DNA from: Escherichia coli
GTDB lineage: Bacteria > Pseudomonadota > Gammaproteobacteria > Enterobacterales > Enterobacteriaceae
Assembly: GCF_003019035.1 (NCBI RefSeq)
Contig: NZ_CP027447.1
DNA length: 64,000 bases
Reading direction: 5' to 3' (one strand)
Numbering within the stretch: the first letter of the stretch is position 1; each line of letters begins with the position of its first letter. Below the pieces are notes generated by a model. The model had not been told where the DNA came from, ran no database searches, and saw nothing but the letters and a program-made list of their open reading frames with translations. Positions 4,275 through 24,800 of the stretch are shown one piece after another. The translations under genes were made by a program, and so were the position numbers.

Positions 4275-4331
4275 GTTATTCACTGATTATATTATTGATA
4301 ATATAATCAGTGAATAACTCTAATTTTTTTA
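4275..4331 (+). terminator. Putative intrinsic terminator after the 682-aa ORF
   Basis: 44-nt near-perfect inverted repeat (gttattcactgattatattatt / gataatataatcagtgaataac) followed by T-tract ttttttt at 4325..4331. Confidence 0.45.
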
Positions 4332-10299: not shown

Positions 10300-10902
10300 A
10301 TGAAGAATAAGGCTGATAACAAAAAAAGGAACTTCCTGACCCATAGTGAAATCGAATCACTCCTTAAAGCAGCAAATACCGGGCCTCATGCAGCACGTAA
10401 TTATTGTCTGACTTTGCTTTGTTTTATTCATGGTTTCCGGGCGAGTGAAATTTGTCGATTGAGGATTTCGGATATTGATCTTAAGGCAAAGTGTATATAT
10501 ATCCATCGATTAAAAAAAGGCTTTTCAACAACGCACCCGCTATTGAACAAAGAAGTTCAGGCTTTAAAAAACTGGTTGAGTATCCGTACTTCTTATCCGC
10601 ATGCTGAGAGCGAGTGGGTATTTTTATCACGTAAGGGGAATCCGCTTTCTCGGCAACAGTTTTACCATATTATCTCGACTTCTGGTGGTAATGCCGGGTT
10701 GTCACTGGAGATTCATCCGCACATGTTACGCCATTCGTGTGGTTTTGCTTTGGCGAATATGGGAATAGATACGCGACTTATCCAGGATTATCTTGGGCAT
10801 CGCAATATTCGTCATACTGTCTGGTATACCGCCAGCAATGCAGGGCGTTTTTACGGCATCTGGGATAGAGCCAGAGGGAGACAGCGTCACGCTGTTTTAT
10901 AG
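10300..10902 (+). CDS. fimB: Type 1 fimbriae recombinase FimB
   Basis: 200-aa tyrosine-recombinase ORF (…HPHMLRHSCGFALANMGIDTRLIQDYLGHRNIRHTVWYT…); position upstream of fimE. Confidence 0.9.
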   Translation: MKNKADNKKRNFLTHSEIESLLKAANTGPHAARNYCLTLLCFIHGFRASEICRLRISDIDLKAKCIYIHRLKKGFSTTHPLLNKEVQALKNWLSIRTSYPHAESEWVFLSRKGNPLSRQQFYHIISTSGGNAGLSLEIHPHMLRHSCGFALANMGIDTRLIQDYLGHRNIRHTVWYTASNAGRFYGIWDRARGRQRHAVL

Positions 10903-11379: not shown

Positions 11380-11976
11380 GTGAGTAAACGTCGTTATCTT
11401 ACCGGTAAAGAAGTTCAGGCCATGATGCAGGCGGTTTGTTACGGGGCAACGGGAGCCAGAGATTATTGTCTTATTCTGTTGGCATATCGGCATGGGATGC
11501 GTATTAGTGAACTGCTTGATCTGCATTATCAGGATCTTGACCTTAATGAAGGTCGAATAAATATTCGCCGACTGAAGAACGGATTTTCTACCGTTCACCC
11601 GTTACGTTATGATGAGCGTGAAGCCGTGGAACGCTGGACCCAGGAACGTGCTAACTGGAAAGGCGCTGACCGGACCGACGCTATATTTATTTCTCGCCGT
11701 GGGAGTCGGCTTTCTCGCCAGCAGGCCTATCGCATTATTCGCGATGCCGGTATTGAAGCTGGAACCGTAACGCAGACTCATCCTCATATGTTAAGGCATG
11801 CTTGCGGTTATGAACTGGCAGAGCGTGGTGCAGATACCCGTTTAATTCAGGATTATCTCGGGCATCGAAATATTCGCCATACTGTGCGTTATACCGCCAG
11901 TAATGCTGCTCGTTTTGCCGGATTATGGGAAAGAAATAATCTCATAAACGAAAAATTAAAAAGAGAAGAGGTTTGA
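11380..11976 (+). CDS. fimE: Type 1 fimbriae recombinase FimE
   Basis: 198-aa tyrosine recombinase paralogous to FimB; synteny. Confidence 0.9.
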   Translation: MSKRRYLTGKEVQAMMQAVCYGATGARDYCLILLAYRHGMRISELLDLHYQDLDLNEGRINIRRLKNGFSTVHPLRYDEREAVERWTQERANWKGADRTDAIFISRRGSRLSRQQAYRIIRDAGIEAGTVTQTHPHMLRHACGYELAERGADTRLIQDYLGHRNIRHTVRYTASNAARFAGLWERNNLINEKLKREEV

Positions 11977-18149: not shown

Positions 18150-19052
18150 ATGAAACGAGTTATTACCCTGTTTGCTGTACTGCTGATGGGCTGGTCGGTA
18201 AATGCCTGGTCATTCGCCTGTAAAACCGCCAATGGTACCGCAATCCCTATTGGCGGTGGCAGCGCCAATGTTTATGTAAACCTTGCGCCTGCCGTGAATG
18301 TGGGGCAAAACCTGGTCGTAGATCTTTCGACGCAAATCTTTTGCCATAACGATTACCCGGAAACCATTACAGACTATGTCACACTGCAACGAGGTTCGGC
18401 TTATGGCGGCGTGTTATCTAATTTTTCCGGGACCGTAAAATATAGTGGCAGTAGCTATCCATTTCCGACCACCAGTGAAACGCCGCGCGTTGTTTATAAT
18501 TCGAGAACGGATAAGCCGTGGCCGGTGGCGCTTTATTTGACGCCGGTGAGCAGTGCGGGGGGAGTGGCGATTAAAGCTGGCTCATTAATTGCCGTGCTTA
18601 TTTTGCGACAGACCAACAACTATAACAGCGATGATTTCCAGTTTGTGTGGAATATTTACGCCAATAATGATGTGGTGGTGCCCACTGGCGGCTGTGATGT
18701 TTCTGCTCGTGATGTCACCGTTACTCTGCCGGACTACCCTGGTTCAGTGCCGATTCCTCTTACCGTTTATTGTGCGAAAAGCCAAAACCTGGGGTATTAC
18801 CTATCCGGCACAACCGCAGATGCGGGCAACTCGATTTTCACCAATACCGCGTCGTTTTCACCCGCGCAGGGCGTCGGCGTACAGTTGACGCGCAACGGTA
18901 CGATTATTCCAGCGAATAACACGGTATCGTTAGGAGCAGTAGGGACTTCGGCGGTAAGTCTGGGATTAACGGCAAATTACGCACGTACAGGAGGGCAGGT
19001 GACTGCAGGGAATGTGCAATCGATTATTGGCGTGACTTTTGTTTATCAATAA
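18150..19052 (+). CDS. fimH: Mannose-binding adhesin FimH
   Basis: ORF track 18141..19052, trimmed to MKRVITLFAVLLMGWSVNAWSFACKTANGTAIPIGGGSANVYVNLAP... Confidence 0.9.
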   Translation: MKRVITLFAVLLMGWSVNAWSFACKTANGTAIPIGGGSANVYVNLAPAVNVGQNLVVDLSTQIFCHNDYPETITDYVTLQRGSAYGGVLSNFSGTVKYSGSSYPFPTTSETPRVVYNSRTDKPWPVALYLTPVSSAGGVAIKAGSLIAVLILRQTNNYNSDDFQFVWNIYANNDVVVPTGGCDVSARDVTVTLPDYPGSVPIPLTVYCAKSQNLGYYLSGTTADAGNSIFTNTASFSPAQGVGVQLTRNGTIIPANNTVSLGAVGTSAVSLGLTANYARTGGQVTAGNVQSIIGVTFVYQ

Positions 19053-19118: not shown

Positions 19119-19230
19119 CCCTTTGTAGGCCAGATAAGACGCGTCAGCGTCGCATCTGGCATAAACAAAGCGCACTTTGCTGGTCTGTTCCCCTCACCCT
19201 AACCCTCTCCCCGGAGGGGCGAGGGGACTG
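19119..19230. repeat. Intergenic palindromic repeats (REP-like unit plus a CCCTC...GAGGG palindromic unit)
   Basis: gtaggccagataagacgcgtcagcgtcgcatctggcat is REP-like. cccctcaccctaaccctctccccggaggggcgaggggactg (19189..19230) recurs with two mismatches at 23935..23975. Confidence 0.5.
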
Positions 19231-19294
19231 GCCGGGCACATTTTTAGACTTTGTCATCAGTCTGAGCCTGCCATTGGCAGGCTCCGGTGTTCTT

Positions 19295-20638
19295 TTACGC
19301 TACCATGCTAATAATCAACACAATAATCAGCCCAACCACGGAGTTGACCAGCTCCAGCAGTCCCCAGGTTTTCAACGTGTCTTTTACCGACAGGTCAAAG
19401 TAACCTTTGAACAGCCAGAATGAGGCATCATTAATGTGGGTGAGGGTGTTGGAACCCGCAGCCGTCGCCAGTACCAGCAGCGCCGGATTCACGCCAACCA
19501 GCTGACCGGTTGCTGGATCAAGGATTGCAGCACTGATAATCCCGGCGGCGGTCATCGCCGAAACGACACCCTGACCCGTCGCCAGACGAATTAGCACAGT
19601 GATCAGCCATGCCATGATGTAGGGCGAGATATTGCCGTGGGACATCAACATGCCGATGGTGTCGCCAATGCCGGTGTCGATGATGGTCTGCTTCAGCACG
19701 CCACCCGCACCGATGATCAGAATCACCATTGCAATACTCTTCACCGCGCTTTCAAAAGCGTTCATCACCCACTGCATGTCATGACCACGCGCGGTGCCAA
19801 AGAGTACGAATGCAACCACCATCGCAATAAACATTGCAATCGGCGAGGAACCGATAAAGTTAACCACTTCCCAGGCAGGGGTATCTTTTACCAGCCAGAT
19901 ATTGGCGATGGTGGTGGAGATCATAATGATCGCTGGGATCAGCGGCACCAGAATCGAAACGCCGAAAGAGGGCAGATTATTCATATCTACCGGTTGATCT
20001 GCTTTCAGGAATGATGGCGTTGGGCGCTCAAGATTGCCGAGGAACTTCGGCAGGATCAGACCTGCGCAGATGACACTTGGGATCGTCACCAGTACGCCAT
20101 AGATATAAACCATCCCCATATCCGCGCCATAAGCATTCACCAGCGCCACCGGACCCGGCTGCGGTGGGAACAGTGAATGTGCGGTAGTGGCAGCTGCTAC
20201 TGCCGGGATCGCCAGTTTCAGGAACGGAATTTTAGCTTCGGCGGCAATAACAATAACCAGCGGCGCTAACATGATAAAGGCCACTTCATAAAACATCGCC
20301 AGACCGAAAATCAGGCCGATGATAATCACCGACAGCTGTACATAGCGCAGACCGAGACGCGCCAGCAGCGTATGTGCTATCTGGTGAGCCGCGCCGGAGT
20401 CGACCATCAATTTACCGATGACCGCACCGAACACCACGATGATAGCCAGTTCCCCCAGCGTGTTGCCGAAGCCCGCTTTCATGGTGTGCAGCAGCGACAT
20501 CAAATCCATGCCCGCCAGCATCCCGACGGACAGCGCCGCCACCAACAAAGCCACCATTGAATTGATTTTGAACTTCAAATTCAGTACCAGCATCAGACCA
20601 ATGCCGAATACCACCCAGAGAATGTTAAGCACATGCAT
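19295..20638 (-). CDS. gntP: Gluconate/fructuronate transporter GntP
   Basis: 447-aa polytopic membrane ORF; synteny fimH-gntP-uxuA. Confidence 0.85.
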
Positions 20639-22243: not shown

Positions 22244-23704
22244 ATGACTACTATTGTTGACAGCAATCTGCCGGTTGCCCGCCCGTCATGGGATCATTCT
22301 CGTCTGGAATCACGCATTGTGCATCTCGGTTGCGGGGCGTTTCACCGCGCGCACCAGGCGCTGTACACCCATCATCTGCTGGAAAGCACCGACAGCGACT
22401 GGGGTATCTGCGAAGTTAACCTGATGCCAGGCAACGACCGCGTGCTGATCGAAAACCTGAAAAAACAGCAACTGCTGTACACCGTGGCGGAAAAAGGCGC
22501 AGAAAGCACCGAGCTGAAAATTATCGGTTCGATGAAAGAAGCCCTGCACCCGGAAATCGACGGTTGTGAAGATATTCTCAACGCGATGGCGCGTCCGCAG
22601 ACGGCGATTGTCTCCCTGACGGTCACAGAGAAAGGTTATTGCGCCGATGCGGCAAGCGGTCAGCTGGATCTCAATAATCCGCTGATTAAGCACGATCTGG
22701 AAAACCCGACTGCGCCGAAGTCCGCGATTGGTTACATCGTAGAAGCCCTGCGTCTGCGTCGTGAAAAAGGGCTGAAAGCGTTTACGGTGATGTCCTGCGA
22801 CAACGTGCGTGAAAACGGTCATGTGGCGAAGGTCGCGGTTCTGGGGCTGGCTCAGGCGCGTGATCCACAGCTGGCGGCATGGATTGAAGAAAACGTCACC
22901 TTCCCGTGCACCATGGTTGACCGCATCGTTCCGGCGGCGACGCCAGAAACCTTACAGGAAATTGCTGACCAGCTGGGTGTTTACGACCCGTGCGCCATTG
23001 CCTGCGAACCGTTCCGTCAGTGGGTGATTGAAGATAACTTCGTTAATGGTCGCCCGGACTGGGATAAAGTCGGCGCGCAGTTTGTTGCGGATGTTGTACC
23101 GTTCGAAATGATGAAGCTGCGTATGCTGAACGGTAGCCACTCTTTCCTGGCGTACCTCGGTTACCTCGGCGGCTATGAAACTATTGCCGACACCATGACT
23201 AACCCGGATTATCGCAAAGCGGCCTTTGCCCTGATGATGCAGGAACAAGCGCCAACGCTGTCGATGCCGGAAGGTACGGACCTGAACGCCTATGCGACGC
23301 TGCTGATCGAGCGTTTCAGCAACCCGTCTCTGCGTCACCGTACCTGGCAGATTGCAATGGACGGCAGCCAGAAGTTACCGCAGCGTCTGCTGGATCCGGT
23401 GCGTCTGCACCTGCAAAACGGCGGCAGCTGGCGTCACCTGGCGCTGGGCGTGGCTGGCTGGATGCGTTACACCCAGGGCGTGGATGAGCAGGGTAATGCC
23501 ATTGACGTGGTCGACCCGATGCTGGCGGAGTTCCAGAAGATCAACGCGCAGTATCAGGGCGTAGACCGCGTGAAAGCGCTGCTGGGCCTGAGCGGTATTT
23601 TTGCCGATGATCTGCCGCAGAATGCCGACTTTGTTGGCGCGGTGACGGCGGCATATCAGCAGCTGTGCGAACGCGGTGCGCGCGAGTGTGTGGCTGCGCT
23701 GTAA
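22244..23704 (+). CDS. uxuB: D-mannonate oxidoreductase UxuB
   Basis: 486-aa ORF; synteny. Confidence 0.9.
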   Translation: MTTIVDSNLPVARPSWDHSRLESRIVHLGCGAFHRAHQALYTHHLLESTDSDWGICEVNLMPGNDRVLIENLKKQQLLYTVAEKGAESTELKIIGSMKEALHPEIDGCEDILNAMARPQTAIVSLTVTEKGYCADAASGQLDLNNPLIKHDLENPTAPKSAIGYIVEALRLRREKGLKAFTVMSCDNVRENGHVAKVAVLGLAQARDPQLAAWIEENVTFPCTMVDRIVPAATPETLQEIADQLGVYDPCAIACEPFRQWVIEDNFVNGRPDWDKVGAQFVADVVPFEMMKLRMLNGSHSFLAYLGYLGGYETIADTMTNPDYRKAAFALMMQEQAPTLSMPEGTDLNAYATLLIERFSNPSLRHRTWQIAMDGSQKLPQRLLDPVRLHLQNGGSWRHLALGVAGWMRYTQGVDEQGNAIDVVDPMLAEFQKINAQYQGVDRVKALLGLSGIFADDLPQNADFVGAVTAAYQQLCERGARECVAAL

Positions 23705-23934
23705 CTAACTGATTACCCTACAGACTTACTGGTCAATCAAACGCATATTTGGTTGACCAGTTTTCGTTTTTTTGCCCACCTGTACGTGCCAACTTCCAGT
23801 GCTAATGGTATAGTTTGAAAATAAATAACCGCATCTAACCAGATTGCTGACAAACCTGTTTATGAGCGATTCAGTCACTGTTTTTCTCCCCAGTCCAGGA
23901 AGGCAATAGGGCGGGGTAATGGCTACAGTCATTT

Positions 23935-23975
23935 CCCCTCACCCTAACCCTCTCCCCAAAGGGGCGAGGGGACTG
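23935..23975. repeat. Second copy of the CCCTCACCCTAACCCTCTCCCC..GGGGCGAGGGGACTG palindromic repeat
   Basis: Near-identical to 19189..19230. It lies inside the spurious N-terminal extension of the uxuR ORF in the track. Confidence 0.5.
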
Positions 23976-24026
23976 AACGTGCCCTTTACAGGATTTGTTA
24001 CCAGTCTCATCAAATGGATATTACTT

Positions 24027-24800
24027 ATGAAATCTGTCACCTCTGCGCAAAGACCTTACCAGGAAGTCGGGGCGATGATCCGCGATCTGATCATAAAGAC
24101 GCCGTACAATCCTGGCGAACGGCTGCCGCCGGAGCGTGAAATTGCAGAAATGCTTGATGTCACGCGGACGGTGGTACGTGAAGCGCTGATCATGCTGGAG
24201 ATCAAAGGGCTGGTGGAAGTGCGCCGGGGTGCCGGTATTTATGTTCTTGATAGCTCAGACAGCCAGAACACAGACAGTCCGGATGCCAACGTCTGTAATG
24301 ATGCCGGTCCTTTTGAGCTGTTACAGGCGCGTCAGTTACTGGAAAGTAACATCGCCGAGTTTGCCGCCCTGCAGGCTACCCGCGAAGATATCGTCAAAAT
24401 GCGTCAGGCATTGCAACTGGAAGAGCGTGAACTGGCTTCCAGCGCGCCGGGCAGCAGCGAAAGCGGTGATATGCAGTTCCATCTCGCCATTGCCGAAGCA
24501 ACGCATAACAGCATGCTGGTGGAGTTATTCCGTCAGTCCTGGCAGTGGCGGGAAAACAATCCAATGTGGATCCAATTGCACAGCCATCTGGATGACAGCC
24601 TGTATCGCAAAGAGTGGTTGGGCGATCACAAACAGATCCTCGCCGCGTTAATCAAAAAAGATGCCCGAGCGGCGAAGCTGGCAATGTGGCAGCATCTGGA
24701 AAACGTTAAGCAACGTCTGCTGGAATTCTCGAACGTTGACGATATTTATTTTGACGGCTATCTGTTTGATTCATGGCCGCTGGATAAAGTCGACGCCTGA
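24027..24800 (+). CDS. uxuR: GntR-family repressor UxuR
   Basis: ORF track 23919..24800, trimmed to MKSVTSAQRPYQEVGAMIRDLIIK... (257 aa). Confidence 0.85.
   Translation: MKSVTSAQRPYQEVGAMIRDLIIKTPYNPGERLPPEREIAEMLDVTRTVVREALIMLEIKGLVEVRRGAGIYVLDSSDSQNTDSPDANVCNDAGPFELLQARQLLESNIAEFAALQATREDIVKMRQALQLEERELASSAPGSSESGDMQFHLAIAEATHNSMLVELFRQSWQWRENNPMWIQLHSHLDDSLYRKEWLGDHKQILAALIKKDARAAKLAMWQHLENVKQRLLEFSNVDDIYFDGYLFDSWPLDKVDA

Follow-up and report, generated by a model that had tools for sequence, protein, structure and literature searches.

The BoxC element of Escherichia coli received its name in the 1990s; Maher's group described it anew as PIT in 2000, and Holder et al. treated it as the TMECO triplex motif in 2015 (PMC4666352). 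The TMECO consensus is CCCTCNCCC-N3-6-GGGNGAGGG-N3-GGGNGAGGG; Table 1 of that paper lists 23 copies in strain MG1655, its survey of 56 strains has 63 loci, and the motif is reported from 262 genomes of Proteobacteria, Azospirillum and Klebsiella among them. In vitro, the isolated G-rich strand folds into a stable intrastrand triplex, as observed by CD and NMR on type A oligonucleotides with one mismatched triplet; in duplex DNA, and by in vivo DMS footprinting, no such stable triplex was seen (PMC4666352). The motif blocks DNA polymerase in vitro, and loci bearing it are more variable between strains than control intergenic regions. Tests summarized in the same paper found no promoter or terminator activity of BoxC and no effect on RNA polymerase, and the orientation of the K-12 copies and their distance to genes follow no pattern (PMC4666352).

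The window analysed here, a stretch of 64,000 nt from an E. coli chromosome, contains a 41-nt unit twice on the plus strand, at 19190-19230 (0 mismatches) and at 23935-23975 (2 mismatches, GG/AA in the central loop). A sequence-only reading had reported this duplication with its two mismatches, which stands, but had started the first copy at 19189, one position ahead of the exact match. None of 100 dinucleotide-preserving shuffles of the window yields a match to the unit. The two copies have the same orientation and lie 4745 nt apart, and their similarity outlasts the 41 nt, extending over 60 nt at 85% without gaps and over 76 nt at 83% identity in a gapped alignment (19188-19263 versus 23933-24007). 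The 41-nt unit is only part of the element, and a flanking extension of about 37 nt is common to both copies.

Both copies are certainly type A members of the E. coli BoxC family. The strict consensus of PMC4666352, applied as a regular expression to the whole 64-kb window, matches at 19191-19225 and 23936-23970, both on the minus strand, and nowhere else. Copy 1 is entry no. 23 of the published Table 1, with 36/36 identical nucleotides at the same locus and coordinates: the entry, CCCTCGCCCCTCCGGGGAGAGGGTTAGGGTGAGGGG at MG1655 4,549,848-4,549,883, is the exact reverse complement of window positions 19190-19225. The core of copy 2 equals entries 7, 11, and 15 (36/36 nt each), and its site between uxuB and uxuR is absent from the 23 MG1655 entries. 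Both belong to the commonest class, type A with a TTA second loop and one mismatched triplet. A scan of the whole window with the Rfam covariance models gave no match at the gathering score. Further genomic copies, on which the earlier reading had made a family assignment depend, exist, and the family is BoxC; the repeat is a genuine dispersed intergenic repeat, but a member of a family that was already named and catalogued.

For comparison, we fetched 18 MG1655 loci and aligned the two window copies with 14 type A members of K-12. Across these 16 sequences the core is all but invariant and the flanks decay. A GYGCNC...CRGTC flank ahead of the core is moderately conserved in most type A members, and a CTGATGACAAA motif further out is common to a subset; both window copies have the two. 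The conserved flanks around the core fit the BoxC length of 56 bp that is quoted, with a count of 32 copies, in PMC2267715. Both window copies and all 18 fetched K-12 loci lie between annotated genes.

The core spans about 36 nt, is G/C-rich and consists of three blocks of 9-10 nt, which read CCCTCGCCCC, GGGGAGAGGG, and GGGTGAGGGG on the minus strand. On the plus strand the order is a C-block (CCCCTCACCC), TAA, a second C-block (CCCTCTCCCC), a loop and a G-block (GGGGCGAGGGG). Calling the unit palindromic is thus right for two of the three blocks and wrong for the third. The lone G-block can pair with either C-block, and blocks 2 and 3 (GGGGAGAGGG / GGGTGAGGGG) can be seen from the sequence to be mirror images. 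This combination of an inverted repeat with a mirror repeat is the defining intrastrand-triplex layout of BoxC/TMECO. In single-stranded DNA, blocks 1 and 2 would pair as a hairpin with one conserved G.A mismatch, and the third block, the mirror copy, would fold back on it as a G.G:C purine-motif triplex. In ViennaRNA predictions, which cover hairpins and not triplexes, single 57-nt units folded as DNA and as RNA on both strands give hairpin energies no better than those of dinucleotide shuffles (z from +0.6 to -1.8), for which reason the description of the unit as a stable palindrome was rejected.

Copy 1 lies between the convergent genes fimH (stop at 19052) and gntP (19295-20638, minus strand), and the catalogue places it 137 nt from fimH and 70 nt from gntP (PMC4666352). 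The MG1655 fimH-gntP spacer differs from the window at three positions only, all outside the identical core, and about 98% of complete E. coli genomes have the region at nearly full length. In E. albertii and Escherichia sp. MOD1-EC7003 the spacer is collinear, with 12 nt (CAACAATCCGAA / CGACAATCCGAA) instead of the 81 nt at 19181-19261, and in this outgroup alignment ACTTTGC and ACTTTGT bracket the copy. Since the outgroup spacers are without the 81-nt element, copy 1 appears to have been gained, or to have replaced other sequence, in the E. coli lineage. The terminator-like hairpin between the repeat and gntP is conserved in E. albertii and lies outside the repeat. The sequence-only reading was also correct in seeing a REP-like palindrome next to copy 1, as a REP is found 29 nt away; it was called with the Z-type palindromic-unit consensus. 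Allowing up to 3 mismatches, the REP consensus (an imperfect palindrome ending in GGCCTAC) matches at that position only and at neither BoxC copy.

Copy 2 lies between uxuB (stop at 23704) and uxuR (ATG at 24027). To its left is a segment made up of an extension (23840-23887), a decayed core (23888-23922), and a spacer (23923-23934). Compared with the type B member and extension at K-12 ygfF-gcvP, this left arm aligns over 83 nt with a local score of 20, against 7.9 +/- 1.5 and a maximum of 14 for shuffles, and in a five-way alignment 23840-24007 matches the K-12 inverted pairs end to end. Because the left arm and the whole segment both align with K-12 pairs, copy 2 is the type A half, still intact, of a B/A inverted pair of 168 nt whose type B half has decayed. 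Only the comparison with type B members of K-12 revealed what the left flank of copy 2 is: its 109 nt are present once in each of the 37 genomes that carry the pair and nowhere else among 5426, and no source for them was found in the uxuR loci of 80 other species or elsewhere in E. coli. The coordinates of these features are collected in Table 1.

Table 1. Repeat elements and neighbouring features at the fimH-gntP and uxuB-uxuR loci of the window
Feature	Position	Strand	Basis
REP (palindromic unit) adjoining copy 1	19125..19160	-	3 mismatches to GCCTGATGCGACGCTGGCGCGTCTTATCAGGCCTAC; shuffles expect 0
Full copy 1 element, core plus extension GACTGGCCGGGCACATTTTTAGACTTTGTCATCAGT	19181..19261	-	outgroup alignment; extension common to other members
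BoxC/TMECO core, copy 1, type A, one mismatched triplet, TTA loop	19190..19225	-	regular expression; Table 1 no. 23 of PMC4666352; MG1655 identity
Terminator-like hairpin GAGCCTGCCATTGGCAGGCTC, between BoxC and gntP stop codon	19264..19284	+	consensus scan
uxuR promoter-like site GTGCCA-17-TATAGT, upstream of variable segment	23786..23814	+	consensus scan
Composite BoxC pair (B on +, A on -), 168 nt, uxuR leader, rare allele	23840..24007	.	present in 37/5426 genomes
Degenerate type B BoxC, opposite orientation, left arm	23840..23934	+	aligns with K-12 ygfF-gcvP type B
Spurious in-frame 36-codon uxuR extension through BoxC copy 2	23919..24026	+	ORF list
BoxC/TMECO core, copy 2, type A, one mismatched triplet	23935..23970	-	identical to MG1655 TMECO nos. 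7, 11, 15
Copy 2 flanking extension GACTGAACGTGCCCTTTACAGGATTTGTTACCAGTCT, right arm of composite	23971..24007	-	aligns with copy 1 and K-12 extensions

The BoxC-pair allele is rare, being present in 37 of 5426 complete E. coli genomes (<1%, 0.7%) and always at the uxuR site; its carriers include SMS-3-5, ST2747 isolates, and an O7:H15 ST70 strain. The remaining E. coli, MG1655 among them, have a REP-containing segment of about 93 nt at this site, and a REP is likewise found there in E. albertii and other non-coli Escherichia (two labelled Escherichia sp., and two labelled E. coli but serving as separate GTDB species representatives). As most E. coli, E. albertii, and the further Escherichia all carry the REP, the REP state of the uxuR leader is ancestral and the BoxC allele derived.

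Aligned with MG1655, window positions 23826-24026 resolve into two unrelated alleles, REP in >99% of genomes versus the BoxC pair in 37/5426. The REP-containing stretch of MG1655 is bracketed by GATTAA direct repeats; the REP and the second GATTAA are both missing from the window.

The hexamers of the promoter-like site ahead of the variable segment are the same as those given for the K-12 uxuB>uxuR spacer in a catalogue of RpoD constitutive promoters (PMC3946193). Lying downstream of this site, the BoxC pair very probably belongs to the uxuR 5' leader; its end is 20 nt from the start codon. For the predicted leader RNA, which consists mostly of the pair, folding gives a single long, branched hairpin (-76.8 kcal/mol, z -5.1), and 0 of 200 shuffles fold as well. 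The sequence-only reading had warned that naive ORF calling extends uxuR through copy 2, and this is confirmed: the ORF 23919-24800 encodes 293 amino acids, against 257 for the real uxuR at 24027-24800, as in K-12. The sequence upstream of the ATG at 24027 is not conserved between alleles or species, and the RefSeq annotation of SMS-3-5, a carrier of the same allele, uses the short start. For annotation, BoxC should be masked as a repeat, as it otherwise produces false N-terminal extensions, as in uxuR, or spurious small ORFs.

At the other end of the same spacer, a terminator-like hairpin after uxuB (23728-23761) includes ATATTTGGTTGACCAGTTT, which resembles the UxuR operator AAATTGGTATACCAATTT quoted in PMC8092373. 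The post-uxuB terminator and an operator for uxuR autoregulation may overlap here.

Of 5426 complete E. coli genomes, 5418 contain the 57-nt unit, with a median of 16 places each (range, 1 to 26); the family is dispersed over about 15-25 intergenic places in a genome. Within the plasmid collection, the 57-nt unit turns up on large replicons of E. coli, Enterobacter, and Klebsiella and also on replicons of Rhizobium, Sinorhizobium, and Azospirillum. One copy from plasmid p02 of Azospirillum sp. TSH58 and one from pK101a of Sinorhizobium sp. K101, when aligned, show the same core, CCCCTCACCCTAACCCTCTCCCC...GGGG(A/C)GAGGG, including the TAA loop; such alphaproteobacterial replicons have many copies of the element, one of 1.9 Mb having it at 25 places. 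Over about 40 nt, TAA loop included, the core is identical between E. coli and both Azospirillum and Sinorhizobium. The phage collection contains the 57-nt unit in 3 of 50,697 records.

Two phage records, MG065686.1 and MG065691.1 (Campylobacter phages A18a and A11a), match BoxC at 92%, and the 155-kb E. coli plasmid NZ_CP074792.1 holds a 40-nt BoxC match at 100% (1625-1664). These matches may be contamination or captured chromosomal DNA.

Taken as a whole, the two copies are very likely BoxC family members without a dedicated local gene role, neutral or selfish in nature and sitting at loci prone to instability. The copies would serve no dedicated role for fimH, gntP, or uxuR, and BoxC would most likely persist as a neutral or selfish dispersed repeat. 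A transient non-B structure, arising in replication or repair, probably leads to small intergenic replacements at BoxC loci, and the uxuR-leader allele, with a BoxC pair in place of the REP, has the appearance of one such event. In our comparison, the uxuR, hrpB-mrcB, tauD-hemB, and ygfF-gcvP loci all differ between strains; the two alleles at uxuR, the replacements at hrpB-mrcB and tauD-hemB, and the ygfF indel fit the locus-variability reading. The suggestion that the repeat is a recombination element is, in the same vein, loosely consistent with the published association of the motif with local genomic variability.

Terminator and promoter scans scored neither BoxC copy and flagged instead the hairpins at 19264-19284 and 23728-23761, and neither copy is followed by a T-run, unlike an intrinsic terminator. 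The transcript-stabilizing role that had been suggested for the repeat finds no support for BoxC, for which the published tests saw neither promoter nor terminator activity (PMC4666352).

Some observations sit less comfortably with the neutral reading. The statement that BoxC has no function is one that rests on absence of evidence, and a core of about 40 nt that is identical in distantly related bacteria is difficult to reconcile with an element that is purely neutral; this cross-class conservation, together with the conserved G.A mismatch in most copies, might reflect a sequence-specific partner. The published association with instability is correlative, and an insertion can pass for a deletion. 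Both window copies, furthermore, look like gains, which points to some active means of spread that the instability model does not supply.

Because both window copies look like gains, the mobility of BoxC was tested. In the mobile-element reading, BoxC, and especially the B/A pair with its extensions, would be a non-autonomous MITE moved by some enzyme, and the uxuR copy a discrete insertion with a target-site duplication. We consider this rather unlikely. At uxuR, the whole of the lineage-specific 168-nt insert consists of BoxC-family DNA, and its termini are imperfect inverted repeats of each other (AGATTGCTGACAAACCTG / CAGGATTTGTTACCAGTCT). On either side of it stand CATCTAAC (23832-23839) and CATCAAAT (24008-24015), where the REP allele has a single CACCTAAC, and copy 1 has its own pair of flanking heptamers. 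The absence of BoxC from the outgroups at both window loci, by which both are gains, would suit an insertion too, as would the variable number of places per E. coli genome and the near-identical core in distant Proteobacteria. The direct repeats, however, are short and imperfect, with an estimated chance of roughly 1 in 10 when offsets are allowed. The uxuR alleles also differ in 12 nt beside the start codon and in REP content, so that the change is a replacement and not a clean insertion, and none of the 5426 genomes has the left flank of copy 2 a second time. No transposase is associated with the element, which is nearly absent from phage records. Holder et al. report no association with phages or plasmids (PMC4666352), although the unit is present on large replicons of the plasmid collection. 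Our literature search for BoxC as a MITE or for newer functional work found nothing relevant, and no paper it returned treats E. coli BoxC as a MITE.

A clean empty site, sought at three K-12 loci (ygfF-gcvP, hrpB-mrcB, and tauD-hemB), was found at none of them. At ygfF-gcvP, the BoxC pair lies at the edge of an indel of about 1 kb that includes ygfF: about 2400 of the 5426 genomes match the K-12 query only from position 383-385, the outer end of the type A extension, and in NU14 and O157:H7 ygfF and the adjacent BoxC pair are missing, with bglA abutting gcvP. Genomes lacking BoxC at the other two loci show segment replacement or remnants, the "empty" hrpB-mrcB allele retaining a remnant of the extension and the BoxC-less tauD-hemB allele having unrelated sequence. 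In strain 07_3636, the B/A pair at hrpB-mrcB (about 255-275 of that locus sequence) has collapsed to a single perfect hairpin, CCCTCTCCCTGTGGGAGAGGG, a change that Holder et al. call the "palindrome effect" (PMC4666352). The results at the three loci match the "intergenic change" and "region missing" patterns tabulated by the same authors (PMC4666352) and do not show clean transposition.

A bolder form of the mobile-element reading makes the 168-nt pair the family's mobile unit, and its arrival at uxuR in one sub-lineage of E. coli a discrete insertion with the flanking octamers as an 8-bp target duplication; this we regard as improbable. If it were true, the stretch from the uxuR promoter to the start codon would have acquired a very stable structure that re-tunes the hexuronate (UxuR/ExuR) regulon in the carriers, and the base-for-base identity of the core in E. 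coli, Azospirillum, and Sinorhizobium would come from its being recognized by a conserved enzyme.

An RNA-level role is, in our view, very improbable. Hairpins would here protect the 3' ends of fimH and gntP as a REP does, and the 168-nt structure would modulate the stability or translation of uxuR mRNA. Such a role could draw on the position of copy 2, which follows the uxuR promoter and precedes the start codon by 20-92 nt, on a predicted leader that folds far better than shuffles, and on the location of copy 1 next to a REP, 3' of two convergent genes. Single units, though, fold no better than shuffles, no T-run or terminator-scan flag accompanies them, the published tests gave no promoter, terminator, or RNA polymerase effect and the K-12 copies no orientation or distance pattern (PMC4666352), and >99% of E. 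coli express uxuR without the 168-nt insert.

A local duplication, by segmental copying or gene conversion over 4.7 kb, would account for the common orientation, the spacing, and the 83% identity of the two copies, but it was rejected and is almost certainly wrong: copy 2 is no closer to copy 1 than to distant K-12 members, several of which are as close or closer (37/37 core positions with fepB-entC, ygfF-gcvP, and frlR-yhfS against 35/37 with copy 1, and an alx-sstT member nearer in the extension), a type B partner stands at copy 2 and none at copy 1, and the copy 1 locus is near-universal in E. coli whereas copy 2 occurs in 0.7% of genomes. As copy 2 is not specially related to copy 1, the two are independent members of the family.

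The window contains two further repeats of other kinds. A perfect inverted repeat of 21+21 nt with a 2-nt spacer (GTTATTCACTGATTATATTAT / ATAATATAATCAGTGAATAAC) lies in an A+T-rich stretch at 4275-4318, and a 161-nt direct repeat with 74% identity occupies 10709-10869 and 11774-11934, spaced 1065 nt. The latter presumably represents the paralogous fimB and fimE recombinase genes upstream of the fim operon.

The repeat family and copy 1 are already described, and the present additions are minor, namely, the rare BoxC-pair allele at uxuR and the outgroup empty site for copy 1. They concern an element that is highly conserved, widespread in Proteobacteria, and prone to structure, without a demonstrated function. 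Both window loci are gains relative to other Escherichia species, and the rare, well-delimited uxuR allele, with a BoxC pair in place of a REP, provides a natural, isogenic-style contrast for effects on expression or local mutation.

Among known repeats, REP/BIME sequences resemble BoxC in being short, G/C-rich, intergenic, multi-copy, and capable of forming hairpins, and they often lie beside it. The REP is unrelated to BoxC in sequence and forms a plain imperfect palindrome, without the third, mirror-repeat block of BoxC. REP sequences have known partners in gyrase, in IHF within BIMEs, and in the RAYT transposases, and they stabilize mRNA; we know of no documentation of any of these partners, or of mRNA stabilization, for BoxC. 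The bacterial MITEs ERIC/IRU, Correia/NEMIS, and RUP are likewise small, non-coding, dispersed, and strain-polymorphic, with terminal inverted repeats and long hairpins, and the 168-nt uxuR pair has the same overall shape. BoxC differs from them in lacking a parent insertion sequence and a consistent target duplication, and two other loci that were compared gave no clean empty site. The closest match remains BoxC/TMECO itself, with which the window copies agree in the consensus, in identity to catalogued members, in their intergenic sites, in the type A form with a TTA loop, and in the strain variability of the locus. Copy 2 in addition stands in a B/A inverted pair, as at five K-12 loci, from which it differs in a decayed type B partner and a shorter spacer.
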